A stretch of 64,000 nucleotides of DNA, taken from positions 106,573 through 170,572 of the IMG/VR virus record IMGVR_UViG_3300032132_000001; one strand, written 5' to 3'. The position numbers and the translations under genes are program-made. The stretch is from a virus. Positions within the stretch are counted from its first letter, which is position 1; every line of letters starts with the position of its first letter. The notes under the pieces were generated by a model. That model did no database searches, was not told where the DNA came from, and worked only from the letters and a program-made list of their open reading frames with translations. Below, piece by piece: positions 3,554 to 18,723 of this stretch.

Positions 3554-3576
3554 GGAGGCCCTCCTAGAGGGCCTCC
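3554..3576. terminator. bidirectional stem-loop terminator (GGAGGCCCT/AGGGCCTCC, 5-nt loop) followed by a T-rich tract
   Basis: Perfect 9-bp GC-rich inverted repeat between convergent genes 3134..3547(+) and 3564..4382(-). Confidence 0.5.
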
Positions 3577-4382
3577 ATTATTTCCCCTGCTCTATCGAAC
3601 CCGTAAAGCCAGATATTTTCCATAGCTTTCGGGTTGAAATCTAGCACGTCGCCCAGGTGCCTCTCTGGGCTGATAATGATCAATTCCCTATTCCTACACA
3701 TTTGGGGTAGGTCGTTGCGCGCGATCTCGGATACCATAATATCTACGGTGCGCATCAAAATATCGATCAGGCCCGAAGGGTTTCTCTCTAGATGCTTGGT
3801 CTCAAGCGGGCTGTTGATTACTACTATGATCCGGTCAATGTGACGATCCCAAAGTACCGGTGCAACCGGGATAGTATCAATCAGACCTCCATCCCCGTAG
3901 TCGTCACCGTGGATGTTGACCAGAGGCATGATAGCTGGCATAGAGGCAGACGCTAGGACGTACTTCTCCCAGTTGTCCATATTCTCCATGGACGACTCGA
4001 TCCTTGCTACCATACCAGTTCTCATATTGGTAGCGGTTACGACGGCTTTCCGCCCGTTCACGTAAGCCTGTTGCAGCGCTTCTTTATCAGAGTAGCGTTC
4101 GATTAGGTTGGCGAGAGGGGAAGTATCAACGAGAGATCCGTGGACGAAAGCAGAGATTAGATCTCTATCTCTCAAAATGTCAGTATCTTCTATTCCACCT
4201 CGATAGACGTCATTTATTACTTCGATGTTGTCCAGGAGAATCGGACCTGCCATCAATGCTCCGGTCGAGGTCCCCGACACTATATCCCATCTGAAATCGT
4301 ACTGGGACATCAACCGGTAGATCGCACCCACCGCGAATGCCCCATTCCTTCCGCCTCCGCTGATTACTAATGCGTCGCTCAT
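3564..4382 (-). CDS. patatin-like phospholipase
   Basis: N-terminal GGGxxG oxyanion motif (ISGGGRNGAF), GTSTG serine lipase motif, and DGG catalytic Asp motif. Confidence 0.7.
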   Translation of the reverse strand: MSDALVISGGGRNGAFAVGAIYRLMSQYDFRWDIVSGTSTGALMAGPILLDNIEVINDVYRGGIEDTDILRDRDLISAFVHGSLVDTSPLANLIERYSDKEALQQAYVNGRKAVVTATNMRTGMVARIESSMENMDNWEKYVLASASMPAIMPLVNIHGDDYGDGGLIDTIPVAPVLWDRHIDRIIVVINSPLETKHLERNPSGLIDILMRTVDIMVSEIARNDLPQMCRNRELIIISPERHLGDVLDFNPKAMENIWLYGFDRAGEIMEAL

Positions 4383-4725
4383 TGGTTATTTCCAGGGCAG
4401 CTGTTATGAACAAGTGAACCACCTTAGACTCTGGTAGAGGTTCTACGCCTCTACGTTCTGCGATTCTCTTATATCGCAGATGTCCTAGTGACCCGGTTAC
4501 GTTTATTTTTCTTAGCTCAGCTTGTAACTTGACAATCGTTGGGATCTTAGTATCGTCCAGCCTGGATATTGTTACAGTCTTCCCAGGATCTCGGACCCAA
4601 GCTTTTATCCACGATTTGCAATCTGATCGTACTTCATCAACATGAGAACGATCATAGTCGGGTAGCTTGTCCCCGCAAGTGCAACCAGCAAGTACAAGAA
4701 GAGCGGCAAAGAGTAGTGTGCGCAT
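4210..4725 (-). CDS. putative lipoprotein (3' end uncertain; last ~57 codons overlap the patatin start out of frame)
   Basis: Lipobox LAGC (MRTLLFAALLVLAGC). The stop-to-stop ORF runs 173 nt into the patatin gene, with a low-complexity tail. Confidence 0.4.
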   Translation of the reverse strand: MRTLLFAALLVLAGCTCGDKLPDYDRSHVDEVRSDCKSWIKAWVRDPGKTVTISRLDDTKIPTIVKLQAELRKINVTGSLGHLRYKRIAERRGVEPLPESKVVHLFITAALEITNERRISNQRRRKEWGIRGGCDLPVDVPVRFQMGYSVGDLDRSIDGRSDSPGQHRSNK

Positions 4726-5342: not shown

Positions 5343-5795
5343 ATGCGATTCTCGCTTCTGCTTTTGCTTCTGTTGGTTGCCTGTAGTTTATCTGGATGTA
5401 TCTCGCTCGGACAAGACGAGCGATTGACGGAAATCGCACAAGAAGAATGGTTGCGCAGTGGGCCCCCTGATATGTTCAGGTACACCTATATTAGAGGAAA
5501 ACTGTGCATTGGGTCTCCTGCCGCAAGAGGACATTTTGATGGTACTCTATCAGTATATGTCCCATGGCCTTGGAACTATTGCGAATTTATGACTCGTATC
5601 ATAATGAGATATGAGCTGAGTAAAGTAGCCTGGCAGTTACATGGGGCTCAATTAGTAGAAGAGAATGGCCCATATGCTGCGCCGGTTACGATCCCTATTT
5701 GTATGTATATGTGGCTAGATGCTGTCTTCCATCTTCCAACCAGCGAACTCCACTCTTGGTACCGTTCGTTGTTTCCTGGGGAAATTCAAAAATAG
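5343..5795 (+). CDS. putative lipoprotein
   Basis: Signal peptide with lipobox LSGC (MRFSLLLLLLLVACSLSGC). Confidence 0.55.
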   Translation: MRFSLLLLLLLVACSLSGCISLGQDERLTEIAQEEWLRSGPPDMFRYTYIRGKLCIGSPAARGHFDGTLSVYVPWPWNYCEFMTRIIMRYELSKVAWQLHGAQLVEENGPYAAPVTIPICMYMWLDAVFHLPTSELHSWYRSLFPGEIQK

Positions 5796-5799: not shown

Positions 5800-6069
5800 A
5801 TGGAACCTCTCAAAATCAAGACCTATTGCGTCGTAGAGCGGACTCAAGAAACTGCTTGCAAGTATGCAACTGAGAGGTACATGTTCGACCATGGTGGGAT
5901 CGAAGAAGCCCGCATGTTGATTATTAAGGCGGGCGGATCCCTCAACTTCCGAATCACTGATGCTGTGATGATCCCTGGATCTCAAGAATTCATATTCCAG
6001 GTACAGATTGGGATCCCACATCCAGAAGAAGAAGAGGTCGAAGAAGACGACGACTACGATTTCATATAA
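5800..6069 (+). CDS. hypothetical protein with acidic C-terminus
   Basis: ATG at 5800 with an upstream AGGAAAA SD. C-terminus EEEEVEEDDDYDFI. Confidence 0.4.
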   Translation: MEPLKIKTYCVVERTQETACKYATERYMFDHGGIEEARMLIIKAGGSLNFRITDAVMIPGSQEFIFQVQIGIPHPEEEEVEEDDDYDFI

Positions 6070-6078: not shown

Positions 6079-6996
6079 ATGAGAAAGGCACTAATTGTAG
6101 GTATCAATAGATACAAAGACCCGCGTGATAATCTACGCGGATGTGTGCCCGATGCTAGAGGTATGCGCCGAGTTCTCAAGAACGTTTACAAGTTCCACCC
6201 TGATAATATCAGGATGCTCCTGAACGAGAGAGCCACCAGGCGTAACATCCTAGTTCGCTTGGAGTGGCTAGTTGGCAAAGCCAAGCCTGGCGACGTGCTA
6301 TTCTTCCATTTCAGTGGCCACGGCTCTCAGATCCGAGATCGCAACGGCGACGAACTCAACGACCATCTCGATGAGATTATTTGCCCATATGACATGGATT
6401 GGGCAAATCCGCTCTCGGACGACGTATTGAAAAGAAAGTTCGCCAAGCTTCCGCGCGGCGCACACATGTACTTGGTGTTCGATTGTTGCCACTCTGGTTC
6501 GGTTGACAGAGGCAACCCTCATTCACCTGATGCCGATGGTGACAGCTACCGTAAATCTCGGTTCCTGTTGCCACCATTGGACATAGCGATGCGCGCAGAC
6601 GAGCGTGAACTCAAACGTAGGAAAGTCGGTTTAAAAAACGCGGAGGCTTGTTGGTGCAGCCGCAAGTTTCCAAAAGTAATGAACTATCTTGGAGGGTTGG
6701 TTCCAGCGATCGCAGAGAGAGCAAGGAAAAAACCCCCAGAGCCTAAACAAAGACACATCATGATTTCCGGATGTCGCGATAATCAGACGAGCGCAGACGC
6801 CTTTATTCAAGGCGCTTACGCAGGGGCCCTATCTTGGCACCTAATCGACGCTCTCACGCGATATCCCGGCCTACCAGTGCAAGAGGTGCATAGAAGGGCA
6901 CGTCGGGCAATCCTACAGCGTGGATTCACGCAGGATTCCCAATTCAGGGGGCCCAAGGCCCTCCGAAATCTGCCCTTCTGCAGCGCCCCGGCCTAA
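6079..6996 (+). CDS. caspase-like peptidase (C14 metacaspase/orthocaspase, p20+p10)
   Basis: Catalytic His in HFSGHGSQ and Cys in LVFDCCHSG. A p10-like SGCRDNQTSADA segment is present. Confidence 0.75.
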   Translation: MRKALIVGINRYKDPRDNLRGCVPDARGMRRVLKNVYKFHPDNIRMLLNERATRRNILVRLEWLVGKAKPGDVLFFHFSGHGSQIRDRNGDELNDHLDEIICPYDMDWANPLSDDVLKRKFAKLPRGAHMYLVFDCCHSGSVDRGNPHSPDADGDSYRKSRFLLPPLDIAMRADERELKRRKVGLKNAEACWCSRKFPKVMNYLGGLVPAIAERARKKPPEPKQRHIMISGCRDNQTSADAFIQGAYAGALSWHLIDALTRYPGLPVQEVHRRARRAILQRGFTQDSQFRGPKALRNLPFCSAPA

Positions 6997-7214
6997 CCGC
7001 CGAAGTATCTGACCGATGCGGCGATTTCAAAACGAGGTTAGGCAATGTCTGTATGCGAACTGTGCTGGGTCAACGAGGGTTTCATCACCATTCCGATGGC
7101 CCCTCTACCAGACGCTCAAGTATGTGAGTACTGCGAAGGAGATCTAGAAGAAGTAAAGAAGCCAGCGATCCAGAAGATCGTAAATATCATCGGATGGCTA
7201 AGCAAAAAACGGAA

Positions 7215-7291
<77 letters not shown>

Positions 7292-7516
7292 GTGATTACA
7301 GTAAGACGGCTTTTGCCGAAGTACAGAACAGAACAGTTAGCTGAGTTCAACTCAGTGGAGGAGGCAACTAGAGCGGTGAGAGCATTCCGCAAAGAGGGTT
7401 ATACGGGGAGTTTGGTTGTAGAGGAGTGGGAAGAGGGCTATATGGCCCACTACTATCCTCCGCTTCCAACTCGTGTATCGGTTCGGTTGTACCAGAACCG
7501 CATATACCACCCGTAG
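7292..7516 (+). CDS. hypothetical small protein (GTG start immediately after tRNA-Pro)
   Basis: 74-aa ORF filling the inter-tRNA gap. Confidence 0.3.
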   Translation: MITVRRLLPKYRTEQLAEFNSVEEATRAVRAFRKEGYTGSLVVEEWEEGYMAHYYPPLPTRVSVRLYQNRIYHP

Positions 7517-7582
7517 CTCAACTGGCAGAGCGCTTGGCTGTAAACCAAGAGGTTGTAGGTTCGACTCCTACCGGGTGGACCA
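7507..7582 (+). tRNA. tRNA with anticodon GTA (Tyr), class I type with short variable loop
   Basis: Acceptor CCACCCG/CGGGTGG, anticodon stem CTTGG/CCAAG, loop CTGTAAA, CCA encoded. Confidence 0.6.
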
Positions 7583-7801
7583 ATGGATGAAAAAGATCTA
7601 AACAGACTGATCCACATGTCAGACCAAGCTGGAAAGGCAGTGGAGCTTCAGGCAGAGTTCTACAAGAAGTTCTTCTGGACTCTAGTTGCGGAACCACAGC
7701 CTATGCCACTAGAGGCTGCAATAGCTCTTGTGGTCGGGTATCAAAAGGCTGTTCTTTACGCCGCGCTTAACCAACAAGGAAATCAAGAAAATCAAGAATA
7801 A
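7583..7801 (+). CDS. hypothetical small protein
   Basis: 72-aa ORF starting at the base after the tRNA 3' end. Confidence 0.35.
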   Translation: MDEKDLNRLIHMSDQAGKAVELQAEFYKKFFWTLVAEPQPMPLEAAIALVVGYQKAVLYAALNQQGNQENQE

Positions 7802-7807
7802 CAAGAT

Positions 7808-7883
7808 GGGGTCTTAGCTCAATTGGGAGAGCACCTGCCTTGCACGCAGGGGGTTGAGGGTTCGAGTCCCTCAGGCTCCACCA
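7808..7883 (+). tRNA. tRNA-Ala(TGC)
   Basis: Acceptor GGGGTCT/AGGCTCC, anticodon loop CTTGCAC, CCA encoded. Confidence 0.8.
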
Positions 7884-7888
7884 TCTAA

Positions 7889-7963
7889 TCTGGGGTAACT
7901 CAATTGGTAGAGTACCTGGCTGTTAACCAGGGAGTTGCGGGTTCGAGTCCCGCCCCCAGAGCC
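7889..7963 (+). tRNA. tRNA-Asn(GTT)
   Basis: Acceptor TCTGGGG/CCCCAGA, anticodon loop CTGTTAA, CCA encoded. Confidence 0.8.
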
Positions 7964-8312
7964 AATGTGCACTAAATCCAAGGGAATGGGAAGCTTCCAG
8001 GCCGAGCTTCCCGCTGAGGAGGGAGATTGGCTCTGGGTATGCCAATGGGGATGCGGCTGCGTGCGTCGAGCTGGCATCGCTTGGATAGTGTCGATTCAAG
8101 ATGCGCCTGATGCTTTGGATCTTGGAAATGGCTTCGCTCTTTCCTGGGAAGGGCAGAGTCCGAATGACACGATAGACCGGATGGATTCTAGCCAGCTACA
8201 AGATGTAGCCGGTTGGATGAAGCTGGACCTTCCGGAAAGTTATGATAACAAGATGGACAGACAGAAAGAAGAAGACCTGCTGGAAGCTGTGAAAAATTGC
8301 CCTGTGGTGTAA
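7964..8312 (+). CDS. hypothetical protein
   Basis: ATG directly after the tRNA-Asn CCA. Trimmed from ORF 7935..8312. Confidence 0.35.
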
Positions 8313-8371
8313 TGGAAGCACGTTTGGCTCTGGACCAGACGGTCGAGGTTCGAATCCTCGCAGGGTAGCCA
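8298..8371 (+). tRNA. tRNA-Gln(CTG)
   Basis: Acceptor TGCCCTG/CAGGGTA, anticodon loop CTCTGGA, CCA encoded. Confidence 0.75.
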
Positions 8372-8617
8372 ATGTGGTGTGATTATCTAGAAAGCATGAG
8401 CGAAGCGGAGCTAAAAGCGTTCCGCCTCTCCCTATGGAAGCACGCGGGCGATGCGAGCAAGAAGATTCGCTGTCCGAAGTGCAACAAGAGGGTAGGGGTA
8501 CGCTCTGTATTCGACTCCAAGCTGGGAGAAACCGTGATCAACCTAAGTCCACATAAGGTCAGGACCACCAAAGCCAAGACGCCTAAGAATAAAGACAAGC
8601 GCATACGACAACGCTAA
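8372..8617 (+). CDS. hypothetical small protein with CPKC zinc-ribbon-like motif
   Basis: 81-aa ORF starting right after the tRNA. Confidence 0.35.
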   Translation: MWCDYLESMSEAELKAFRLSLWKHAGDASKKIRCPKCNKRVGVRSVFDSKLGETVINLSPHKVRTTKAKTPKNKDKRIRQR

Positions 8618-8621
8618 CCAT

Positions 8622-8695
8622 TGCCCTGTGGTGTAATGGTAGCACGAGAGGTTTTGGTCCTCCAGGCGCGAGTTCGATTCTTGCCAGGGCAGCCA
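8622..8695 (+). tRNA. tRNA-Gln(TTG)
   Basis: The 5' half is nearly identical to the tRNA-Gln(CTG) copy. Anticodon loop TTTTGGT, CCA encoded. Confidence 0.75.
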
Positions 8696-8703
8696 AAGGA
8701 GAA

Positions 8704-9042
8704 GTGATGAGTGAAGTAATTCGTGGTCTGTGTGTAACCATCTCAGGTCAAGAGATCGTAGAGCGAGCGCATAGGCGTTTGGAAGATGCTGAAGAACGTC
8801 TGGAGAAGTTGAGGGAAGCTCTCACTCGGGTCGATGAAATGGACCCTCGTGATCGTGAGCTTGCTGGGCTCAAGACTCGCGGAGGCGACATGAAGGACGA
8901 GGTCGAGCAGAAGATCAGACAGCAAGAGTCGGCTATTGAATTCTACGAGTTCTTGTCTGAACACGTCGAAACGGATTCTAGCTACCGGATCGATATCTCT
9001 CAACTCAAGATCTTCGGTATCGAGAGCCCTTACCGATACTAG
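8704..9042 (+). CDS. hypothetical coiled-coil protein
   Basis: 112-aa ORF. Confidence 0.35.
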   Translation: MMSEVIRGLCVTISGQEIVERAHRRLEDAEERLEKLREALTRVDEMDPRDRELAGLKTRGGDMKDEVEQKIRQQESAIEFYEFLSEHVETDSSYRIDISQLKIFGIESPYRY

Positions 9043-9046
9043 AGCC

Positions 9047-9457
9047 ATGAAGACCTACAAAAACATCGTCCAGTGTGGTGCGGATGATCTGAGGAAGATG
9101 CTTCTTCAGAAAGAGCAAGAAGAAATCAGCGGTGTAGTAAACGTCGCTTGGAATGTGAACCCTCCTATTGCTCACGATGCGTGGCGTCCTGTTCTTTGGC
9201 AACCTTATCACGATGAAAAAACACCAGAGGTAGATTGGTTCAAGCCAATCATTGCATTTTACGAACTCTGGAGCAAGAGTGGTAAGGTAGTAATCCACTG
9301 CCAAGCTGGTGGGAATCGTTCAAGAGGAACTTTCGGCGTACTTCTGGTCGCTTGTCACGGGATGACGGCTCAAGAAGCGATAAAGATCACTGGGCAGCCA
9401 GGGTACTCAGCATGGCGAATAGCGATTGAAAACCAAGCGAGACATCTGGGAAGATGA
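9047..9457 (+). CDS. dual-specificity/tyrosine protein phosphatase (CX5R)
   Basis: Active-site loop VVIHCQAGGNRSRG (HCxxGxxRS). The start was taken at the internal Met of ORF 8936..9457. Confidence 0.6.
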   Translation: MKTYKNIVQCGADDLRKMLLQKEQEEISGVVNVAWNVNPPIAHDAWRPVLWQPYHDEKTPEVDWFKPIIAFYELWSKSGKVVIHCQAGGNRSRGTFGVLLVACHGMTAQEAIKITGQPGYSAWRIAIENQARHLGR

Positions 9458-9738
9458 CGTACGACTACGAAGACAACGACGACACATACGTTTGCAGACT
9501 ACCAGGTGGGTACCATCTGTTTAGGAAGCCAAACGAAGCTGGTGGCTTCACTTATTACTCTGATGAAGTAGGTGGAGGCGTCTTCGTTTGGGACACCGGC
9601 TTGGTAGCTGACACCACCTTGATGGCAGCGATCGTAGCAGAGCAGGCAAGAGCGTTCGAAACAGAGATATTCCTCAAGAGAGAGACAAGAGACCAAGTTA
9701 ACGAGATCATAAGGGCCGACTCGGAGGACGAGGCGTGA
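9454..9738 (+). CDS. hypothetical acidic protein
   Basis: 94-aa ORF with an ATGA overlap. Confidence 0.4.
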   Translation: MTYDYEDNDDTYVCRLPGGYHLFRKPNEAGGFTYYSDEVGGGVFVWDTGLVADTTLMAAIVAEQARAFETEIFLKRETRDQVNEIIRADSEDEA

Positions 9739-9739
9739 C

Positions 9740-9812
9740 AAAGGCGACTAGTTACGGCACTTAGGTGTAGGACCTGTCACGAACGGTGGTTCAATTCCAT
9801 CTCGGTTCACCA
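9740..9812 (+). other. tRNA-like 3' fragment (T-arm GGTGG-TTCAATT-CCATC, acceptor 3' strand, CCA) with no matching 5' acceptor or anticodon arm found
   Basis: The T-loop and CCA end are canonical. The upstream 70 nt do not fold into D and anticodon arms. Confidence 0.3.
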
Positions 9813-10048
9813 TGAAAGTATACGCAGTAACGTTCAAAGTCCATCACCAGTTACCTAAATTGTTTTTGGAGCTTACTAAAGCTATAGGGTACGCACAGAA
9901 AGAGATGCCTAATTCTTTCTATCTTCCCTATGATAAGAATTGGGGTTGGCAGTTGAGCGCTATCACAAAAGATTGCAAATTCTGGAGGACAGTAGACGGT
10001 AACGTTTTTATACGTGAGACAACTTTAGACCAAGTATTGCGGGTGTAG
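9812..10048 (+). CDS. hypothetical protein
   Basis: 78-aa ORF. The ATG shares the A of the preceding CCA. Confidence 0.35.
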   Translation: MKVYAVTFKVHHQLPKLFLELTKAIGYAQKEMPNSFYLPYDKNWGWQLSAITKDCKFWRTVDGNVFIRETTLDQVLRV

Positions 10049-10113
10049 CTCAGTGGTAGAGCTTCGGGTTTCCAACCCGATGGTCGCGGGTTCGAATCCC
10101 GCCGCCCGCTCCA
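10039..10113 (+). tRNA. tRNA-Gly(TCC)
   Basis: Acceptor GCGGGTG/CGCCCGC, anticodon loop TTTCCAA, CCA encoded. Confidence 0.8.
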
Positions 10114-10323
10114 ATGACAACTCCAAGACAGTACAGTCTGGTGAAAGCAGTGCTGGCCGAGGAATATGAAGATCAATACCCGTTTGCAAACGGTGACACC
10201 TTCATCTTCCTCGGTGAGATAATCCAGATGCCTGGGCATTGTGTGATAGCAGCTAAAAATGGACAAGTTCTTTTCGGCTATCACACCGACAATTTTGTCG
10301 AACTAACTGAAGACGAAGCATGA
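10114..10323 (+). CDS. hypothetical small protein
   Basis: 69-aa ORF starting immediately after the tRNA. Confidence 0.35.
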   Translation: MTTPRQYSLVKAVLAEEYEDQYPFANGDTFIFLGEIIQMPGHCVIAAKNGQVLFGYHTDNFVELTEDEA

Positions 10324-10499
10324 AAGAGCTTGTCAGTAGGATTGAAGAACTGACACGAGAGAATCACGACCTGCGAAAGCAGGTCAAACAGTTGAGTAAG
10401 ACCAACATCGACGCTTTGGCATCGATGACGATCATTACTCAGAACACAGAGTTGAAAGACCTGAGGCGGCAGGTCGAGGAGTTGAAAGATGGGATATAA
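10320..10499 (+). CDS. small coiled-coil protein (59 aa, below the ORF-track cutoff)
   Basis: MKELVSRIEELTRENHDLRKQVKQL... Read by hand. ATGA overlap with the upstream gene. Confidence 0.3.
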   Translation: MKELVSRIEELTRENHDLRKQVKQLSKTNIDALASMTIITQNTELKDLRRQVEELKDGI

Positions 10500-11343
10500 A
10501 AAGATCGTGAACATGTACAAGGACACTGGAGTCCTTATGTTCCGGGAAGTCTACGCCATGGAGAAAATCCACGGCACATCCGCTCATATCAAGTACCATG
10601 AAGGGGAGATCACCTTCTTCTCTGGAGGCGGCAAACACGAGACGTTCGTAGCGCTGTTCGATCTAGAGAAGTTGGCTGAGGCTTTCAAGGCGATCGGTCA
10701 CGACGAAGTTACCATCTACGGTGAGTCCTACGGTGGCAAGCAGCAGGGTATGTCTGACACCTACGGTAAAGAGGCTCGCTTCGTAGCTTTCGAAGTGAAG
10801 GTACACGATTGCTGGCTCAATGTGCCGAACGCGCACGACGTCGTAACCAAGCTCGACCTTGAGTTCGTGCACTACGAGAAGGGCCCGGCTGAGCTTGACT
10901 GGCTCAACGAGCAACGGGACGCACCGTCTGTACAGGCGAAGCGGAACGGGATCGAAGAGGATAAGCTCCGGGAAGGTGTCGTTGTACGGCCTCTCATGGA
11001 GATGTGGAAGTCTAACGGCGAGCGGGTCATGTGCAAGCACAAGCATGATAAGTTCCGTGAGACTAAAACTCCCCGTGAGGTGGACCCTGAGAAAATGAAG
11101 GTCCTAGAAGACGCGCGGGCTGTTGCAGAAGAGTGGGTTGTAGATATGCGGCTCCAGCACGTCATGGACAAGATGGAGAAGGTGGGGGAGATGGAGCATA
11201 CCCCTCTCGTCATCAAGGCTATGATCGCTGACGTCAAGGCAGAGAGCGAGGGCGAAGTAGTATGGTCGAAGGACGTGGAGAAGGCGATCGGTCGGGCGAC
11301 AGCTCAGCTGTACAAGAAGACGGTCTCCAAGATCCCGGTGTAA
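10489..11343 (+). CDS. RNA ligase, Rnl2-like (T4 RnlB family)
   Basis: Motif I EKIHGTS (KxHGxN/S adenylation lysine), motif III YGESYGG, motif IV EGVVVRP, motif V MCKHK. Confidence 0.65.
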   Translation: MGYKKIVNMYKDTGVLMFREVYAMEKIHGTSAHIKYHEGEITFFSGGGKHETFVALFDLEKLAEAFKAIGHDEVTIYGESYGGKQQGMSDTYGKEARFVAFEVKVHDCWLNVPNAHDVVTKLDLEFVHYEKGPAELDWLNEQRDAPSVQAKRNGIEEDKLREGVVVRPLMEMWKSNGERVMCKHKHDKFRETKTPREVDPEKMKVLEDARAVAEEWVVDMRLQHVMDKMEKVGEMEHTPLVIKAMIADVKAESEGEVVWSKDVEKAIGRATAQLYKKTVSKIPV

Positions 11344-11423
11344 AACATCCTACTACCCTGTCAGGTTATTCAATAGACGACCTGGCAGGGGAGTTGGCCA
11401 ACCTACGATACGACGCGCTGACT

Positions 11424-11594
11424 ATGCTTTTGGCAAAGCTCGGGGCTAAACTGTGTAACGATGCTGTGGCTGATCTTGGAAGAGGTCGGCCACAGCTTGC
11501 AGGACACCTCAAGAAAGCTGGAGTGAGCACCTTTGATGCCGCTCGGGAAATGCGAAAGGCGTGGTTGGTCTGCGAACCTTTCATGAAAACCTAA
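11424..11594 (+). CDS. hypothetical small protein (start uncertain)
   Basis: Part of ORF 11262..11594 downstream of the ligase stop. Confidence 0.2.
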   Translation: MLLAKLGAKLCNDAVADLGRGRPQLAGHLKKAGVSTFDAAREMRKAWLVCEPFMKT

Positions 11595-11598
11595 AGAT

Positions 11599-11676
11599 GG
11601 TGGACGTAGCTCAGTCTGGTAGAGCGCCTGGTTGTGGTCCAGGTCCGCGCGGGTTCGAATCCCGTCGTCCACCCCA
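11599..11676 (+). tRNA. tRNA-His(GTG) with encoded G-1
   Basis: Acceptor GTGGACG/CGTCCAC with an extra 5' G opposite discriminator C. Anticodon loop TTGTGGT, CCA encoded. Confidence 0.8.
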
Positions 11677-12045
11677 TTGGATGAGCCACCTAATTTCTGC
11701 TGCATTTGTCGGGAGCCGATTTTCGACTCCTGGTTTCACGGGCAGGGGATGCGGTGTGGCAAGACCGAATGTGAAATCCTATTTGAGTTGAAAATGGCTG
11801 TTGGCTTAATGTGGATGAGGTACGTTGGATCTCCAGCTTTTGTTTGGGGATGTGCGGGTTCTGGAGATATAGCAGACCCAAACTTCAACCCAGCAGGTGT
11901 GAGGATCAACCAGTACATCATAAACTTCCAGAACGACGAAGTGTTTTATGTAAGTAACTGCTTTGGCGCTTACTGGCGAAAGCAGCGAGATTGTTCTGCT
12001 TTCGAATCTGAGATGGTAAGGAAGGAATTCGCAAAGAGAATATGA
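11677..12045 (+). CDS. hypothetical Cys-rich protein (CCICREP...CGKTEC), start codon uncertain (TTG?)
   Basis: ORF 11632..12045 trimmed to begin after the tRNA. Confidence 0.3.
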   Translation: MDEPPNFCCICREPIFDSWFHGQGMRCGKTECEILFELKMAVGLMWMRYVGSPAFVWGCAGSGDIADPNFNPAGVRINQYIINFQNDEVFYVSNCFGAYWRKQRDCSAFESEMVRKEFAKRI

Positions 12046-12296
12046 GCATTCTCCGACCTCAAAAAGACCCGCGAACCGCCGCGCAGAAAGAGTCAGATAA
12101 TCGCATACAAGAGAATATGAGTCCAGTCTACGACCTTTGGCGACAAGACGACAACGGGAATAGGTTCTTCGTCCAAACGTATGTAAGCTTGACTGAAGGG
12201 CAAGAAGTAAGAGATAACTTGGAAAGCAAAAATCACAAGCAACTTTACTTGCTTGTAACACGGAGTTGTGGCAGAGATGGTAATGCGCGGGATTGA
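12042..12296 (+). CDS. hypothetical protein (3' end overlaps tRNA-Phe)
   Basis: 84-aa ORF. Confidence 0.25.
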   Translation: MSILRPQKDPRTAAQKESDNRIQENMSPVYDLWRQDDNGNRFFVQTYVSLTEGQEVRDNLESKNHKQLYLLVTRSCGRDGNARD

Positions 12297-12336
12297 AGAT
12301 CCCGTGATCCCGGTTCGACTCCGGGCAACTCCACCA
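12262..12336 (+). tRNA. tRNA-Phe(GAA)
   Basis: Acceptor GGAGTTG/CAACTCC, anticodon loop TTGAAGA, CCA encoded. Confidence 0.75.
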
Positions 12337-12389
12337 AGGATGGAAACGATGGACGAACTCAAGCGAAAACCCTGGGGTAAACACAACCA

Positions 12390-12461
12390 CGGGGCGTAAC
12401 TCAACGGTAGAGTAGCTGGCTCTTAACCAGTCTGTTGTAGGTTCGAATCCTGCCGCCCTGA
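12390..12461 (+). tRNA. tRNA-Lys(CTT), no encoded CCA
   Basis: Acceptor CGGGGCG/CGCCCTG, anticodon loop CTCTTAA. Confidence 0.7.
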
Positions 12462-12465
12462 CTTC

Positions 12466-12538
12466 CGGGGTGTAGCTCAGCTGGTAGAGCATCCGGCTTT
12501 TAACCGGGCGGTCGTGGGTTCGAATCCCTCCACCCTGA
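12466..12538 (+). tRNA. tRNA-Lys(TTT), no encoded CCA
   Basis: Acceptor CGGGGTG/CACCCTG, anticodon loop CTTTTAA. Confidence 0.7.
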
Positions 12539-12819
12539 CTAGAAATGAGAATCTGGATCCTGAAAGGTCTTTACGGTCGAGGCAGATGTTTTCAACTTTG
12601 GAAGCATCTGGAAGAAATCTATGACACCTTTGAAGAAGCAGTCAAAGAGGTTGTCAACCTTCGGAAAAGTGGAATAACACTCCACATCAAGGTAGCAAGA
12701 GAAGTTGGGTTTATCGAACGATAACCCACTAACGAAGACCAATGAATAACACAACCACTCCCAACGGACCGAAGCGGCGATGGCGCCGACGATGTACTCG
12801 CCAACTATCGCGAGTATAT

Positions 12820-12894
12820 GGCCGTGTGGTAGAGTGGTTCATGCGCTAGACTGCAAATCTAGAGACCTGGGTTCGAATCCCAGCACGGCCTCCA
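12820..12894 (+). tRNA. tRNA-Cys(GCA)
   Basis: Acceptor GGCCGTG/CACGGCC, anticodon loop CTGCAAA, CCA encoded. Confidence 0.75.
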
Positions 12895-12900
12895 CGATTT

Positions 12901-12971
12901 AGGGAGGGTGCTGGGCATAGACCGGTCTCCAAAGCTAGTCCTCGCGGGTTCGATTCCCGTCCTCCCTGCCA
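12901..12971 (+). tRNA. atypical tRNA-like gene, possible Trp (CTCCAAA loop, anticodon CCA) with imperfect anticodon stem and short D-arm
   Basis: Perfect acceptor AGGGAGG/CCTCCCT, canonical T-arm GCGGG-TTCGATT-CCCGT, CCA encoded. The core does not fold canonically. Confidence 0.35.
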
Positions 12972-12978
12972 TACAATT

Positions 12979-13049
12979 AGGGGGCGGTCGGTGCCCACGC
13001 AGACCATCGAAAGTCCGTAAGCCAGGTTCGACTCCTGGGCCCCCTGCCA
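12979..13049 (+). tRNA. atypical tRNA-like gene, anticodon not assignable
   Basis: Perfect acceptor AGGGGGC/GCCCCCT, T-arm CCAGG-TTCGACT-CCTGG, CCA encoded. No canonical anticodon arm. Confidence 0.3.
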
Positions 13050-13128
13050 GAGACAACCTAGGATGTAGCTGCGAGTGCGCACAGAAAAGGCCACTCTCTA
13101 AGCTGGCAGCTGAAGGTTAGTCTCATTT

Positions 13129-13205
13129 GCACCCGTAGCTCAGTGGACTAGAGCATCTCGCTACGGACGAGGGGGTCGTAGGTTCGAATCCTACCGGGTG
13201 TGCCA
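13129..13205 (+). tRNA. tRNA-Arg(ACG)
   Basis: Acceptor GCACCCG/CGGGTGT, anticodon loop CTACGGA, CCA encoded. Confidence 0.75.
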
Positions 13206-13221
13206 CAAAGGAGGCAGTACC

Positions 13222-13373
13222 ATGGCAAAGCAGGCGAAGGGTCACCAGAAGAGGAAGTGTGAGCGTTGTGGTGGGACCGGGAGGACCTGGACCCAGATCA
13301 TCCCACTCAAAGGCAAGAAGAAGATGGTTTCTGCACCATGCGATAAGTGCGGCGTATCTAAGCAGAATGGCTA
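13222..13373 (+). CDS. small zinc-ribbon protein (50 aa), strong SD AAAGGAGG
   Basis: MAKQAKGHQKRKCERCGGTG...CDKCGVSKQNG. Read by hand; absent from the ORF track because it is under 60 aa. Confidence 0.5.
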
Positions 13374-13495
13374 GAAAATACGAGAAAGCGTTCTTCAAGA
13401 AGAGGTGGCTAACCACCATCTATGTTGATGGCGATATAGAGTCTGCTATCTCTGGTCTAGAATCTGCAAAAGAAAAAGAATCAAGGACGCAATAA
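13366..13495 (+). CDS. hypothetical small protein
   Basis: MARKYEKAFFKKRW... The internal start of ORF 13259..13495, overlapping the upstream gene by 8 nt. Confidence 0.25.
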
Positions 13496-13508
13496 GCCTA
13501 TTGCGTCG
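13487..13508. terminator. stem-loop GACGCAAT-aagcct-ATTGCGTC
   Basis: 8-bp perfect inverted repeat following the small-gene cluster. Confidence 0.3.
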
Positions 13509-13544
13509 TCACGGGTATTCAGTAGTCAAGAAAAAGGGAAAGAA

Positions 13545-13826
13545 ATGAAACTCCGTACATTTCTATCATTCACCGCTGGGATGATGTCAGCTTCGGCCTT
13601 GGCCTTTGCTGTCGCGTCCTTCATGGCGGAACCCCATATTGCCTGGCGCTGTCAAGCGACCGCTCTTATCCTCTTAGTCATCTCTTATTTCTGGACTCAC
13701 GAAGCTGTGAGGTTAGAGAAAGAAGAGAAGCGCCCAAAGGGAGCAGACAAAGAGAAGCAGAAGGAGATAGAAGGCGGTTATAAATTCTCAACGGCTCACT
13801 CTGCAGCTCTTAGGAGCAAGCCGTAA
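13545..13826 (+). CDS. small membrane protein (2 TM helices), in frame with the downstream RRF homolog across a single TAA
   Basis: Hydrophobic segments. SD AAGGGAAAG. The stop TAA at 13824 is in the same frame as the RRF-like sequence that follows. Confidence 0.45.
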   Translation: MKLRTFLSFTAGMMSASALAFAVASFMAEPHIAWRCQATALILLVISYFWTHEAVRLEKEEKRPKGADKEKQKEIEGGYKFSTAHSAALRSKP

Positions 13827-14330
13827 GGCAACCTACGGCAGGACCTCGATAAGCCGGTACAACATCTCAAAGATCTATATTCTGGAATCAGCGTAGGGAG
13901 AGCCAATCCGGCTCTCCTCGATGGTGTGAAGGTTGAGTGCTATGATGATCTACTCCCTCTCACCCAAATCGCATATGTGTCGATCCTAGGGCCTGAAATT
14001 CTTCAGGTTATACCTTATGATCGAGCACTCATTGGTGCTATCCGAAGAGGGTTGCACAATTCCAAGCTTCCGCTCAGCCCGACCGTAGAAGGTGATCGGC
14101 TGATCGTCAAGGTCCCGATCCCCGACATAGATGATCGGAAGAAGCTAGAGAAGCACGTCAAGAAGCTCGCTGAGGCTCAACGCGTTGCTATCAGGCAGAT
14201 CCGGCGCAAAGCGAGAAAGGCGGGCGAAAACGAAAAGACCGTTGAAGACCTGGTGAAAGAGTATATTAACAAAATAGACGACCTTCTAGCGAAGAAGGTC
14301 GAAGACCTAAACCCAAAGAGCTTCTTCTGA
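13827..14330 (+). CDS. frr: ribosome recycling factor homolog (frr-like); no canonical start codon before the GTG at 13926
   Basis: Residues align with E. coli RRF (LLDGVKVECYDD ~ LLDGIVVEYYG; AIRQIRRKARK ~ AVRNVRRDAND). The homology continues 33 codons upstream of the annotated start to the TAA. Confidence 0.55.
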   Translation, partial: GNLRQDLDKPVQHLKDLYSGISVGRANPALLDGVKVECYDDLLPLTQIAYVSILGPEILQVIPYDRALIGAIRRGLHNSKLPLSPTVEGDRLIVKVPIPDIDDRKKLEKHVKKLAEAQRVAIRQIRRKARKAGENEKTVEDLVKEYINKIDDLLAKKVEDLNPKSFF

Positions 14331-14650
14331 TGTTTCCTACTCGACCAGATGGGACTACCGAGCAATGGTTAGATGATCAGTTTATTAACGATCATCCCTA
14401 TGCTATGCTCACCAGAAGAGGGAAATTATATGATGTACACAGGCATTGGGGAGAAGATCTAGCAGACCCAAGGAATGAATATGATGCTATATTCTTCGTG
14501 TGCGACGGGATATCCTTCATAGCTGAAGATGATGGTTGCATCGGAGTAGCGGAATGGTCAAAAGTCGAGAAAGCATGGTTCGTCTGGTTCTGGGTAGATA
14601 AACATGGCGAACTAGAATATCTCAACCAACACCTGAGGGAAATACTATGA
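14330..14650 (+). CDS. hypothetical protein
   Basis: 106-aa ORF with an ATGA overlap. Confidence 0.4.
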   Translation: MFPTRPDGTTEQWLDDQFINDHPYAMLTRRGKLYDVHRHWGEDLADPRNEYDAIFFVCDGISFIAEDDGCIGVAEWSKVEKAWFVWFWVDKHGELEYLNQHLREIL

Positions 14651-14949
14651 ACAAATCCTACTTCGGAAATGTCAAGGTCCACCTTACTTGGCTCGTTCTT
14701 GCTACTCTGATGTCCTTCGTGTCCTACACGGTCGGTCAGTTCAAGTACAGCTACTTCGAAAACCTGGCCGACGACGCTACAAAGCAGCTAGTCGAGACCA
14801 AGGAAATTATGGAACGTCAACAGACGACCCTCGTCTCGGCTATCCGTAAGAAGAACCAAGCCGAAGGCCAGCTTGAAGGTCTCAAAGACGACGTAGACAA
14901 CCTCAAACTGCAAATCGAGATGTACAAGAAGCTATTGAAAAAGCAGTAG
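14647..14949 (+). CDS. membrane-anchored coiled-coil protein
   Basis: N-terminal TM helix then coiled-coil. ATGA overlap. Confidence 0.4.
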   Translation: MNKSYFGNVKVHLTWLVLATLMSFVSYTVGQFKYSYFENLADDATKQLVETKEIMERQQTTLVSAIRKKNQAEGQLEGLKDDVDNLKLQIEMYKKLLKKQ

Positions 14950-14962
14950 GCAAACCTAGAAT

Positions 14963-15967
14963 ATGGACGACATTATCGACGACATCGCTTCGCTAATCAC
15001 TGACGACCCAGACGTTGTAAATGAGAAGCGCGCTAAGCCTACAAGGCCCCAGAAAAAGCGCACGCTCAATGAAGACGTCCACACCGTCAAAGGGGAAAGC
15101 CCGAGGGGCGAAGAGAAGCGCAGCCTGATCCAGTATATCCGAGAGGGCAACACCTTTCGGCCGGCTGGCAAGATTGAGCTTCACGAGGAGCTTCCTCCTG
15201 CGTCCTACAATGTTGGGTCGGATATGCAAGGGCCCTTCCTTGAACTATTCCAGCCTGTAACAGATGAGTTGGTCCATTTCGAAGACAGCAAGATGGATTC
15301 TGTCATCAAAGAAGTGGATAAGTTCTGGGGTTTGAAAGAGAACTTCAAGCGCCTTGGGTACCTCCACAACCGTGGTATCCTTCTCCATGGTCCTCCGGGA
15401 ACTGGGAAGACCTGTCTGGTCCACCAAATCACCGAGAGCATGGTAGACAGCGGCGACTTGATCTTCCACGCGAACAACGTCTACGGCCTCAAAAGCGCTC
15501 TAAGCGCTTACCGCTCCGTCGAACCAGAGCGCCGTACGGTGATTGTACTTGAAGATATGGACGAGTATATCGGCCACCAGGAGCGTGCTATGCTCCAGCT
15601 GCTCGATGGCTCAAGCGCGACTGATAATGTGCTCTTCCTGGGTTCTACTAACTACATCAGCAAATTCCCGCCGCGTCTCCTCCGTCCAGGCCGGTTCGAC
15701 AAGAAGGTACACATTGACATGCCGCCGATGAACGGCCGTGCAGCGTACCTTGAACACAAGCTTGGCGAGATTGAAGAAGCTGACGTCATTGAATCTCTAG
15801 CAGAGAAGACAGACGGCTTCAGCTTCGGCCACCTCCGTGAATTGGTGATCGCTGGTTATGCTTTCCAGGAAGACCTGGATAGTACAATCAGTAGATTGCG
15901 GACACTCGATACTGAGTCCTTGCCCTTGCGCGAGGGTAAAGAACACGAGTTGTCCGCGCGTATCTAA
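14963..15967 (+). CDS. AAA+ ATPase carrying the N-terminal leader motif MDDIIDDIASLITDDPDVVNE
   Basis: Walker A GPPGTGKT, Walker B VLEDMDE, second-region-of-homology RPGRFD. The N-terminal 21 aa match the shared motif. Confidence 0.7.
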   Translation: MDDIIDDIASLITDDPDVVNEKRAKPTRPQKKRTLNEDVHTVKGESPRGEEKRSLIQYIREGNTFRPAGKIELHEELPPASYNVGSDMQGPFLELFQPVTDELVHFEDSKMDSVIKEVDKFWGLKENFKRLGYLHNRGILLHGPPGTGKTCLVHQITESMVDSGDLIFHANNVYGLKSALSAYRSVEPERRTVIVLEDMDEYIGHQERAMLQLLDGSSATDNVLFLGSTNYISKFPPRLLRPGRFDKKVHIDMPPMNGRAAYLEHKLGEIEEADVIESLAEKTDGFSFGHLRELVIAGYAFQEDLDSTISRLRTLDTESLPLREGKEHELSARI

Positions 15968-15981
15968 GACTCACCAAAACT

Positions 15982-16073
15982 GGAGAGGTGGCAGAGTGGC
16001 CGATTGCGCTGCCTTGCTAAGGCAGTGAGCCCTTTACGGGGCTCCGTGGGTTCGAATCCCACCCTCTCCGCCA
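15982..16073 (+). tRNA. tRNA-Ser(GCT), class II long variable arm
   Basis: Acceptor GGAGAGG/CCTCTCC, anticodon loop TTGCTAA, long variable stem-loop, CCA encoded. Confidence 0.8.
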
Positions 16074-16074
16074 T

Positions 16075-16254
16075 ATGTCTAGATTACCAGAGCTAAAGCG
16101 CCTAGAGAAAGCTCTAGAAACCGGAAATGAAACGGAACTAGAGTGGGCGGCTAAATATTGTAGTAGCAGACTCTCCTGGGTGCCTAACAGAAAACACCAA
16201 AGGCACTGGGAGAAAATGCTTAGAAAAGTAGAAGCTGCCCAAACAGAAGACTAA
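16075..16254 (+). CDS. hypothetical small protein (59 aa)
   Basis: Read by hand. Starts 2 nt after the tRNA and ends at the next gene's ATG. Confidence 0.3.
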   Translation: MSRLPELKRLEKALETGNETELEWAAKYCSSRLSWVPNRKHQRHWEKMLRKVEAAQTED

Positions 16255-16255
16255 C

Positions 16256-16603
16256 ATGCATTATATCGGCACCTATTTCTGCGACATCGACGGAACCTTA
16301 GTCCAGCACGGAACCACCACGTTCCTACCAGGCGCCAAAGAGTTCCTCCAGAAACTAAGAGACGAAGACTTTAGGATCATCTTCGTCACTCGTAGAGGCG
16401 ATTTTGAGTTCAAGGGGCATCCAGCCTATAGCAAAGCTGCTACGGAAAAGATGCTCCGAGATAACGGCCTAGATGACTGTACGATCATCTATGACGTGAT
16501 GAGCCCTAGGTTCATCGTGGATGATAGCCAAGCTTTTGTTCTAGAGCGTGATACCAACATTGGTTTCACTCAAGAAGAAATAGACATGGTAGGGAGGAGA
16601 TAG
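16256..16603 (+). CDS. small HAD-superfamily phosphatase
   Basis: Motif I FCDIDGTL (DxDGT). Confidence 0.5.
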   Translation: MHYIGTYFCDIDGTLVQHGTTTFLPGAKEFLQKLRDEDFRIIFVTRRGDFEFKGHPAYSKAATEKMLRDNGLDDCTIIYDVMSPRFIVDDSQAFVLERDTNIGFTQEEIDMVGRR

Positions 16604-16605
16604 AG

Positions 16606-16734
16606 ATGAATTGGGATGCGATAATGATGTGGGCAGGAGTGGCGCTAATCATGTTCGCTTGGATCCCTGTCAAATGGGCCATGACTATCCTCGGTGCGCT
16701 ATGGGTAATCGTAGCACTCTTACCTAGAAAGTAA
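16606..16734 (+). CDS. small membrane protein (42 aa)
   Basis: Read by hand. SD GGGAGGAG. Hydrophobic throughout. Confidence 0.3.
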   Translation: MNWDAIMMWAGVALIMFAWIPVKWAMTILGALWVIVALLPRK

Positions 16735-16737
16735 ACT

Positions 16738-16829
16738 GGAGAGGTGGCAGAGCGGCCGAATGCGCTCGCTTGGAAAGCGAGTAGGGGGTTCACGCCCCCT
16801 CGCGGGTTCGAATCCCGCCCTCTCCGCCA
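16738..16829 (+). tRNA. tRNA-Ser(GGA), class II
   Basis: Same acceptor as Ser(GCT). Anticodon loop TTGGAAA, long variable arm, CCA encoded. Confidence 0.8.
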
Positions 16830-17132
16830 GTGGATAACAGAGAAGACTCAATACTGTCTGTATTGGCGATCTCTGTCGTAAACTCTAAGGGTTATGACAG
16901 TCGCCTATTCGACATAGTGCGCAACGACACCAATAGTGGTGAGCTGCAGAGGGCGCTTTTTGCTCTGGAAGAAGCGCTCAAGAAAACCCAAGCGGGAAGA
17001 TGGCCAGAACAACTCCAAATCATCTGTGAGTTCCTAAAGTCTAGAGACAATGTAGATTGTAGGAGAGCAGGTTACGCTCTAGACTGGGCTATCATCACCA
17101 ACAAAAGGAAGCCCAGACCGCCTAAAAGATAA
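16830..17132 (+). CDS. hypothetical protein (GTG start)
   Basis: 100-aa ORF directly after the tRNA. Confidence 0.35.
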   Translation: MDNREDSILSVLAISVVNSKGYDSRLFDIVRNDTNSGELQRALFALEEALKKTQAGRWPEQLQIICEFLKSRDNVDCRRAGYALDWAIITNKRKPRPPKR

Positions 17133-17135
17133 GGG

Positions 17136-17333
17136 ATGGAAAACATCCCAGAAGGCGCAGGCGACAAACTACTTCATTTCATAGTCGAATCAGGGTTGAT
17201 AGGGTTCGAAGAAGGCGACGAAGAAGGTGCTACACTATTCTTCACAGCCAACGCGGGCGAACAAGTGGAAGCGTGGTTAAGAGATGAGCTTTGCAGAAGA
17301 TCTGGACCCTCTCCAGAAGAAGATCCTAGCTAA
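17136..17333 (+). CDS. hypothetical acidic protein
   Basis: 65-aa ORF. Confidence 0.3.
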   Translation: MENIPEGAGDKLLHFIVESGLIGFEEGDEEGATLFFTANAGEQVEAWLRDELCRRSGPSPEEDPS

Positions 17334-18708: not shown

Positions 18709-18723
18709 CTTAGGAGAATAACG

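Follow-up and report, generated by a model that had tools for sequence, protein, structure and literature searches.

A huge phage encodes a stand-alone, probably competent metacaspase-type protease

We analysed a stretch of 64,000 nucleotides (hereafter, the window) from the IMG/VR virus record IMGVR_UViG_3300032132_000001 (positions 106,573 to 170,572), which contains an open reading frame (ORF) for a metacaspase-like protein of peptidase family C14. The product is probably an intact, cytoplasmic and catalytically competent metacaspase-type cysteine endopeptidase with both a p20 and a p10 region. The explanation that best fits all observations, to which we give a probability of roughly 60%, is a competent Arg/Lys metacaspase that would be made as a zymogen, autoactivated at Arg161 and used in host takeover or counter-defence. 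Its biochemical identity is well supported, whereas its biological role is not.

The Pfam profile PF00656 (Peptidase_C14) matched the ORF with E=1.3e-32 and 113.7 bits (cut-off 21.4) over residues 1–289 and profile positions 1–223 of 233, a profile score far above chance, and no second Pfam family was detected in the 305-aa protein at E≤1. A phmmer search against all PDB sequences returned metacaspases only, plus the Geobacter structural-genomics protein GSU0716; CgMCA-I of Candida glabrata (7qp0, E=4.6e-37) and Yca1 of yeast (4f6o, E=3e-33) came first, followed by AtMC4, TbMCA2 and AtMC9, so that fungi, plants and trypanosomes supply the nearest solved relatives. With a profile built from 33 homologues (alignment A1), the matches to PDB metacaspases rose to E values of about 1e-57 through 1e-39 (best, 8.7e-57), and this profile aligned end to end with CgMCA-I and AtMC9. 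The original prediction had described a complete C14 metacaspase with an intact His/Cys dyad, free of extra sensor or effector domains and carried by a phage. All of this is borne out, the dyad by the alignment of His81 and Cys137 to the PDB metacaspases, and the phage nature of the window by gene content (tRNAs, replication genes and an ORFan array, in the window and its flanks).

The ATG start is supported because homologues begin at the same MKKAL/MRKAL position. A metagenomic contig of 397,419 bp encodes an identical protein (P0001), as does a separate contig from the Logan assembly of run SRR9663116, and no second C14 paralogue was found in the 64-kb window. The protein has neither a signal peptide nor a membrane helix, and it has no prodomain because its N-terminus (MRKALIVGIN) is already at strand beta-1. 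C-terminal to p20 it carries the metacaspase p10 motif SGCxDxQTSADA, and residues 226–296 align to p10 of Yca1, CgMCA-I and AtMC4. The order is thus p20 followed by p10, which differs from the type III order (p10 first), and the N-terminal prodomain ahead of p20 that marks type I is absent. In PHROGs, the sole match was a weak N-terminal one (6.6e-4) to phrog_18397, a family of unassigned function.

The AlphaFold2 model had a mean predicted local distance difference test score (pLDDT) of 76 and a predicted template modelling score (pTM) of 0.76, with low confidence in the loop 88–97 and in the linker segments 139–159 and 176–192. As modelled, the protein has the caspase/hemoglobinase alpha-beta fold: the Foldseek ranking of PDB structures was headed by AtMC4 and AtMC9 (TMq 0.68–0.70), followed by GSU0716, CgMCA-I, Yca1 and TbMCA2, and the paracaspase MALT1 and caspases were far weaker and well down the list.

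Active-site residues were assigned by combining the HMMER alignment to CgMCA-I with the residue roles given for CgMCA-I and TbMCA2 in PMC9622860 (Table 1). The dyad, the pocket residues Asp25, Asp135 and Ser79, and Asp98, Asp114 and Asp115 of the cation site were invariant or nearly so, both in the 33 homologues of A1 and in 141 homologues. Because an acidic S1 pocket of this kind sets Arg/Lys specificity in solved metacaspases, the phage protease is predicted from its sequence to cut after Arg or Lys, not after Asp. The residue that stands in place of the fourth acidic cation ligand, Arg144, is common in the family: 54 of 65 cellular and 38 of 64 viral homologues have Arg at this position, and a further 18 of the viral set have Asp.

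Between p20 and p10, a variable and gappy stretch of 12–44 residues across the family precedes a conserved motif, R161-[FY]-[LI]-x-P-P-x-D-I-x-x-R in the consensus of 142 aligned sequences. Position 161 is Arg or Lys in 98% of these, 162 is Phe or Tyr in 87%, 163 is Leu or Ile in 91%, and the two prolines are present in 87% (P165) and 95% (P166). Helices were modelled at residues 167–171, 189–196, 198–207 and 209–216. The sublineage of the window protein, P0002 and P0003 has a unique insertion of ~30 aa in this helical segment, and the R161-to-Q236 spacing is 74 residues in the window protein versus a family median of 41–44.

This layout resembles that of the plant enzymes AtMC9 and AtMC4, in which Arg183 and Lys225, respectively, of the autoinhibitory motif (AIM; ITSR/ALP and AKDK/SLP) occupy the S1 pocket, a helical UNK domain follows, p10 comes after it, and cleavage at the basic residue activates the enzyme. 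Like them, the phage protein has a flexible linker, a basic residue, hydrophobic residues and proline, helices and then p10. The analogy suggests that the phage protease is made as an autoinhibited zymogen, with Arg161 as both the autoinhibitory and the autoprocessing site. Arg161 of the R-[FY]-[LI]-x-P-P motif would fill the S1 pocket as Arg183 and Lys225 do in the plant enzymes, and autocleavage there would switch the enzyme on. Activation would be tuned by the Asp98/Asp114/Asp115 cluster, neutralised by Ca2+ or by the family-specific Arg144. A regulated zymogen, rather than the constitutively activatable enzyme that had been presumed, is indicated because the linker Arg/Lys is near-invariant and three of the four acidic cation-site residues are kept.

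Table 1 Features of the metacaspase gene and of its surroundings in the window. Motifs were read directly in the DNA; residue numbers are those of the 305-aa protein.
Feature	Coordinates	Strand	Residues	Remarks
Metacaspase-like Peptidase_C14 ORF, stand-alone	6079..6996	+		ATG start, 305 aa plus stop, complete
p20-like catalytic region	6079..6504	+	1–142	HMMER alignments to CgMCA-I and Yca1
S1-pocket Cys22/Asp25	6142..6153 (Cys22/Asp25)		25	CgMCA-I Asp120, TbMCA2 Asp95
HFSGHG motif	6307..6324		77–82	
S1-pocket Ser79			79	Ser two residues ahead of the catalytic His, by offset reasoning
Catalytic His81	6319..6321		81	CgMCA-I His182
Asp/Glu-rich loop plus D114-D115	6337..6423	+	D87, D91, E92, D95, D98, E99; D114-D115	D98/D114/D115 correspond to Ca2+/Sm3+ ligands
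Cation ligand Asp98			98	CgMCA-I Asp198, TbMCA2 Asp173
Cation ligand Asp114			114	CgMCA-I Asp214, TbMCA2 Asp189
Cation ligand Asp115			115	CgMCA-I Asp215, TbMCA2 Asp190
DCCHSG motif	6481..6498		135–140	
S1-pocket Asp135	6481..6483		135	CgMCA-I Asp236, TbMCA2 Asp211
Catalytic Cys137	6487..6489		137	CgMCA-I Cys238
Cation ligand Ser141			141	CgMCA-I Thr242
Arg144	6508..6510		144	Position of CgMCA-I Asp245, TbMCA2 Asp220; fourth acidic cation ligand replaced by Arg
Variable linker	6505..6558	+	143–160	pLDDT <50 at 139–159; gappy, variable alignment columns
Linker motif R161-F-L-L-P-P-L-D-I-A-M-R172	6559..6594	+	161–172	Candidate autoinhibitory/autoprocessing site, P1 = Arg161
Helical segment between linker motif and p10	6595..6744	+	173–222	AlphaFold2 helices, alignment A1
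p10-like region with SGCRDNQTSADA motif	6745..6966	+	223–296	Second HMMER stretch, to p10 of Yca1, CgMCA-I and AtMC4
SGCRDNQTSAD segment	6766..6798		230–240	
Patatin-like phospholipase	3564..4382	-		PF01734, 2e-21
Lipoprotein-like ORF	4210..4725	-		Overlaps the patatin ORF as listed
Lipoprotein-like ORF	5343..5795	+		
89-aa ORF, acidic C-terminal tail	5800..6069	+		No recognised family; syntenic in L168
59-aa Zn-ribbon ORF, CxxC...CxxC	7045..7224	+		No recognised family; 68% identical and syntenic in L168
Accessory block after the caspase, co-directional	7215..28937	+		22 tRNA genes interleaved with small ORFs and enzymes
Dual-specificity phosphatase (DSP)	8936..9457	+		PF00782; inside the tRNA array
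RNA ligase	10489..11343	+		PF09414; inside the tRNA array
AAA+ ATPase	14963..15967	+		334 aa, classic clade
441-aa ORF	21758..23083	+		Weak matches to DFP (CoaB-like) C-terminal domain and class II aldolase/adducin
NAD+ salvage pair	23135..25511	+		Overlapping NMNAT-like cytidylyltransferase/NUDIX fusion and NAMPT (PF04095 1e-55, PF18127 4e-37)
HNH-RusA ORF	40513..41436	-		phrog_959, phrog_244
DnaE-like Pol III alpha, split	57220..62156	-		PHP and N-terminal part 60666..62156, remainder 57220..59805

A relative with 75% amino-acid identity on an independent 7-kb contig from a different Joint Genome Institute (JGI) sample (L168) was compared with the window. Both share the order acidic-tail ORF, caspase, Zn-ribbon ORF (59/60 aa) and a tRNA array with RNA ligase; the common tRNA order is Pro-Tyr-Ala-Asn-Gln-Gln-Gly-His-Phe-Lys-Lys, and the ligase lies between tRNA-Gly and tRNA-His. 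The caspase gene is under strong purifying selection, with a ratio of nonsynonymous to synonymous substitution rates (dN/dS) of 0.10 between the two copies at a dS of 1.78, which is near saturation. The GC content of the gene, overall and at third codon positions (GC3), matches that of other window genes. Given this dN/dS, the matching composition and the kept synteny, the phage lineage has maintained the caspase gene as a functional component. As a side observation, the amino-acid order of the first eleven window tRNAs matches that of L168, although the two tRNA-Lys anticodons have changed places; such stability of gene order is unusual in the tRNA array of a phage.

These data bear on the idea that the gene is a passenger, either a recently captured host gene without a role in infection or a decaying copy. 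Cellular homologues at 36–43% identity are indeed abundant, mainly in Desulfobacterota, Nitrospirota, Chloroflexota and Methanothrix, with some in Actinomycetota. Yet dN/dS is low between two diverged phage lineages that keep synteny, all catalytic and pocket residues are intact and the composition is that of the phage. In the distance tree, the branches around the window clade are mostly viral, and the best cellular relatives (≤43%) are no nearer than the best viral ones (44–46%), the protein being about equally far from both. We consider the passenger idea hardly credible, and recent host capture was rejected on dN/dS, composition and tree position. The neighbour-joining tree carries no bootstrap values and was read only qualitatively: most cellular sequences fell in one large clade and viral ones in several, with the window clade among the latter.

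Relatives are widespread, and the family spans hundreds of uncultured phages as well as numerous anaerobic bacteria and archaea. A word-indexed search gave 2,776 homologues at E≤1e-5, of which the nearest (51–75% identity) form a small clade and the others are at ~40–46%; an exhaustive search of 1.84 billion cluster representatives gave 30,705 at E≤1e-3 and 633 at E≤1e-30. Pattern scans, baited with the catalytic motifs themselves, found relatives with the family alignment on at least 222 IMG/VR viral contigs and at least 364 matches in a one-genome-per-species collection, some on Mb-scale chromosomal contigs. Among 80 kept of the 222 contigs, 27 were ≥100 kb and 11 were ≥200 kb (maximum 485 kb), and a few were metagenome-assembled genomes (MAGs) of giant viruses. 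Around the viral copies lie phage-type genes (NrdD, HNH, GH108 lysozyme, head protein, endonuclease VII, polynucleotide kinase). Cellular contamination as the source of the IMG/VR matches was considered and is countered by the head protein, endonuclease VII, HNH and polynucleotide kinase PHROG neighbours and the phage-like arrays. Conversely, some "cellular" occurrences are really binned phage contigs, because one 62,246-bp contig appears both as an IMG/VR locus (L018) and in the MAG "Deltaproteobacteria bacterium Meg22_02_Bin_86" (L126).

A tblastn search of 50,697 deposited phage records matched a single uncultured phage (485 kb, unannotated) and hence no cultured one, and among BFVD structures only giant-virus metacaspases were significant, with no phage entry. 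The gene had been called unusual; this does not hold for metagenomic viruses, given the IMG/VR contigs, but it does for cultured phages, PHROGs and BFVD, from which relatives are nearly absent. For phages, only passing mentions were found, in PMC3501461 (phage-related metacaspase operons in Clostridium botulinum), in PMC11526630 (a caspase-like CDS in Bacillus phage RBClin15) and in a further report that names "metacaspase-1" among the auxiliary genes of five sponge viral operational taxonomic units (vOTUs). Giant viruses that infect eukaryotes are known to encode metacaspases (Medusavirus, HaV01, gvSAG). The searchable literature, which most subscription-journal papers lie outside, yielded no functional study of a C14 protease from a phage.

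Two further arrangements were seen among the homologues. Of the 120 closest, 22 have one N-terminal transmembrane-like helix ~45 residues ahead of the protease domain (e.g., P0007, P0009, P0013, P0016, P0020, P0030, P0041, P0054 and P0074). They make up a membrane-tethered subfamily, found for the most part on phage-like contigs, and the helix is absent from the window protein. A separate phage lineage (loci L043, L055, L057, L060–L062, L066, L070, L075 and L084) carries the C14 gene (~6001–6990 in each) in a fixed order, preceded by a ~140-aa secreted protein and a ~121-aa SSGCINL protein and followed by HSP20, ClpS, a SufBD-like gene and a 108-aa ORF, with ClpX upstream in five of the loci. 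This arrangement resembles a "proteostasis island" with a phage metacaspase at its centre.

Once active in infection, the protease would cut host (or phage) proteins after basic residues, in the service of host takeover or counter-defence. We weakly infer such a role, which is suggested because a tRNA array, a tRNA-repair RNA ligase, NAD+ salvage genes, a phosphatase and a patatin neighbour the caspase. NAD+ salvage pairs are reported as a phage counter to NAD+-depleting defences.

Several points count against this explanation as a whole. An all-against-all BLAST of the ±5 neighbours across 134 unique loci recovered lineage-specific synteny only; because no partner or substrate gene is kept across phage lineages, the takeover or counter-defence role is guilt by association in one lineage. 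When the linker and p10 were compared with the PDB at the sequence level, only p10 aligned and the linker had no match to the plant AIM, so that the AIM reading has motif resemblance and conservation alone as its basis, in a part of the model where pLDDT is <50 (139–159). Ca2+ dependence is uncertain because the fourth cation ligand is Arg rather than Asp. The conservation of His and Cys among the scan matches is partly built in, because the catalytic motifs served as bait. Lastly, a promoter and terminator scan around the caspase gene gave fewer sites than in shuffled sequences and was uninformative.

Searches around the gene gave no candidate target. A jackhmmer search with four small flanking ORFs found relatives only in the same lineage (L002, L168), and the idea of a partner, inhibitor or substrate in cis was dropped, since the neighbours are not kept outside the lineage. 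The flanking ORFs (4210–4725, 5103–5309, 5343–5795, 5719/5800–6069 and 7045–7224) had no Pfam match and were too short or lipoprotein-like. With none of them co-occurring with the caspase outside the lineage, the proposed cleavage of a gasdermin-like target or a translation factor found no support.

A role in proteostasis, in which the protease would work with chaperones and AAA+ unfoldases during infection to clear or trim proteins that have aggregated or misfolded, would fit the island described above, where the C14 gene (~30% identity to the window protein; 9–11 unique IMG/VR loci) lies by HSP20 (PF00011, 6.8e-14), ClpS (PF02617, 2e-24) and the SufBD-like gene, in five loci with ClpX upstream. 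An involvement in aggregate clearance has been proposed for the yeast metacaspase Mca1/Yca1, and the window itself has an AAA+ ATPase (FtsH/PAN/Cdc48-like) 8 kb downstream of the caspase on the same strand. However, the HSP20/ClpS synteny is limited to one phage lineage and could stem from common descent instead of function. Among the scanned ORFs of the window, neither HSP20 nor a Clp gene was identified, and the AAA+ gene does not adjoin the caspase. We regard this role as unlikely.

The caspase could instead help to kill or lyse the host late in infection, or serve as an exclusion or abortive system that the phage turns on its competitors, akin to host caspase-like immune effectors. Within the 2.5 kb upstream of the gene are a patatin-like phospholipase and two predicted lipoproteins, the membrane-tethered homologues exist, locus L006 has a GH108 lysozyme 1.5 kb downstream of its homologue, and the core of the protease matches the PADLOC "caspase" model at 4e-26. 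That match covers only 126 of 453 profile positions, though, and the NCBIfam model NF047832 (EACC1-type caspase) scored 47.6 bits against a cut-off of 140. No gasdermin, TIR, CHAT/TPR or NTPase/STAND partner was found among the Pfam-scanned neighbours, the window protein has no membrane anchor, and no holin or endolysin was identified beside it. Such a function seems improbable to us. Membership in the bacterial gasdermin-protease system and among the caspases of type IV Thoeris, EACC1-type or other defence systems was rejected, with the partner gene absent nearby and the protease-model matches partial or below the cut-off.

Large phages process many virion proteins proteolytically, and in two loci of the viral superclade a PHROG "head protein" match lies no more than four genes from the caspase, so a maturation protease for virion proteins or a polyprotein was also weighed. 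In the window, however, the caspase has an ORFan array of early type on one side and the tRNA/auxiliary block on the other, rather than portal or capsid genes, the known prohead proteases belong to other families, and close stand-alone homologues occur in cellular organisms without phage context. A maturation role is very improbable, and membership among prohead/maturation proteases was rejected on the accessory position and the weak sole PHROG match (phrog_18397). The processing of phage proteins, also proposed originally, is unlikely for the same reason, the gene being in the accessory/tRNA block and not in a structural module.

Host takeover or counter-defence by an Arg161-activated protease remains our preferred reading, and the wider setting of the gene is as follows. 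The content of the window is of huge-phage type, on a contig of ~397 kb, and the caspase gene lies at the junction of a small-ORFan array and the tRNA block. No integrase, capsid, terminase, portal or tail gene was found in the 64-kb window and the flanks read. Just upstream of the window are ~30 small co-directional ORFans and a Gp23-family match, a 154-aa ORF ~5.4 kb before the window start (L172:1717–2181) that matches PF07068 (T4 Gp23 major capsid family) and is too short for a capsid protein; the downstream flank has UDG and ferritin. At the DNA level, relatives among deposited phages were limited to tRNA-sized matches.

The enzymes of the accessory block are the DSP, RNA ligase, AAA+ ATPase, NMNAT/Nudix, NAMPT and an aminotransferase, and its 22 tRNA genes, all on the + strand, cover 18 amino acids. 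In three other viral loci, a caspase homologue has a polynucleotide kinase PHROG nearby, and the company of phosphatase, ligase and kinase may be a recurring RNA-repair theme. For the AAA+ ATPase, the FtsH, PAN and Cdc48 models were nearest, all far under the cut-off, and no fused protease or substrate-binding domain was present. The 441-aa ORF is an odd fusion. The patatin-like phospholipase shows a weak, sub-threshold likeness to the CBASS cGAMP-activated lipase model.

A minus-strand replication block comprises DnaB, SSB, RusA-HNH, exonuclease, RecA and a DnaE-like polymerase, and the window also has DUF5131. The RusA-HNH gene is a single ORF with an HNH endonuclease-like N-terminal part and a RusA-like Holliday junction resolvase. 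The best phage match of the DnaE-like polymerase was to a 595-kb uncultured phage; two small ORFs (~138 and ~164 aa) lie between its two parts, and a mobile element may interrupt the gene.

In the immunity of bacteria against phages, proteases of the caspase family have lately been recognised as executioners (gasdermin systems, type IV Thoeris and Craspase). A phage bearing its own metacaspase is the reverse of this, and the searchable literature holds no functional study of it. The gene is intact, under strong purifying selection and stably placed in a huge-phage accessory region, within a family that has members on over 200 viral contigs and is nearly absent from cultured phages and from the searched resources of phage protein families. 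It is a concrete candidate for asking what a viral Arg/Lys caspase-like protease does in bacteria, be it counter-defence, host shut-off, proteostasis or timed death, and the candidate activation site Arg161 makes the zymogen idea directly testable. A broader proposal is that phage metacaspases are a widespread weapon of large phages, latent Arg/Lys proteases that autocleavage at the linker Arg would switch on in infection and that would destroy specific host proteins, such as those of immunity, translation or proteostasis; we consider this possible but doubtful. If it were true, phage metacaspases would be the viral counterpart of the caspase-like proteases that bacteria use against phages, and a plant-type autoinhibitory motif with a helical insert would already exist in prokaryotic and phage enzymes. 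Even if the role were mundane, the impression of the gene as a rarity is corrected.

Compared with known systems, the phage protein is like the type I metacaspases (Yca1, 4F6O; CgMCA-I, 7QP0/7QP1; TbMCA2, 4AF8), with single-sequence E values of 1e-24 to 1e-37 and profile values of ~1e-44 to 1e-57, in the p20–p10 order, HxSGHG, DxCHSG, the acidic S1 pocket, SGxxDxQTSADA and three of four cation ligands. Unlike them, it is phage-encoded, has no prodomain, has Arg144 at the fourth cation ligand and carries the R-[FY]-[LI]-x-P-P linker motif, which Yca1, CgMCA-I and TbMCA2 lack. Like the plant type II enzymes AtMC9 (8A53, 9N3D) and AtMC4 (6W8S), which are the top Foldseek matches of its model, it has no prodomain, and its layout parallels their AIM and UNK domain, but its linker and helical region have no sequence-level similarity to theirs; the higher TM-scores to AtMC4 and AtMC9 may come from cleaved linkers that are missing in the type I crystal structures.

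Giant-virus metacaspases (Medusavirus, HaV01, gvSAG-566-O17, Fadolivirus and Clandestinovirus) are also virus-encoded C14 proteins and gave the best BFVD matches (E 4e-18 to 1e-10). They differ in infecting eukaryotes that have metacaspase-linked death pathways and are only 15–27% identical, the phage family being nearer to prokaryotic homologues. In its usual usage, the term orthocaspase denotes a p20 protein without a recognisable metacaspase p10. Orthocaspases such as MaOC1 of Microcystis are prokaryotic C14 proteins with a His-Cys dyad and Arg/Lys specificity, according to PMC7935541 and PMC6426788. The phage protein is like them in being a prokaryote-type C14 protein with this dyad and the same predicted specificity; unlike orthocaspases so defined, it includes an evident p10-type region, for which an alignment to eukaryotic metacaspases was obtained.

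The caspase-like proteases of bacterial immunity (gasdermin-associated, type IV Thoeris and CHAT/Craspase) share the clan CD fold and the arena of phage–host conflict, but they are host-carried and linked to a gasdermin, TIR or CRISPR effector, whereas the gene described here is carried by the phage. In size and architecture the phage protein is like the stand-alone bacterial and archaeal caspase family proteins (GSU0716, 3BIJ; MAGs of Desulfobacterota, Nitrospirota and Methanothrix), which are 36–43% identical single-domain proteins of ~270–320 aa with the same linker motif. The window sublineage differs from these by the ~30-aa insertion before p10, and in the neighbour-joining tree, which carries no bootstrap values, the viral copies fall in several clades of their own. 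Judged by sequence, the phage gene belongs to this stand-alone prokaryotic caspase family, and it is a phage-borne member of a known enzyme kind, in a sizeable but unstudied viral family.

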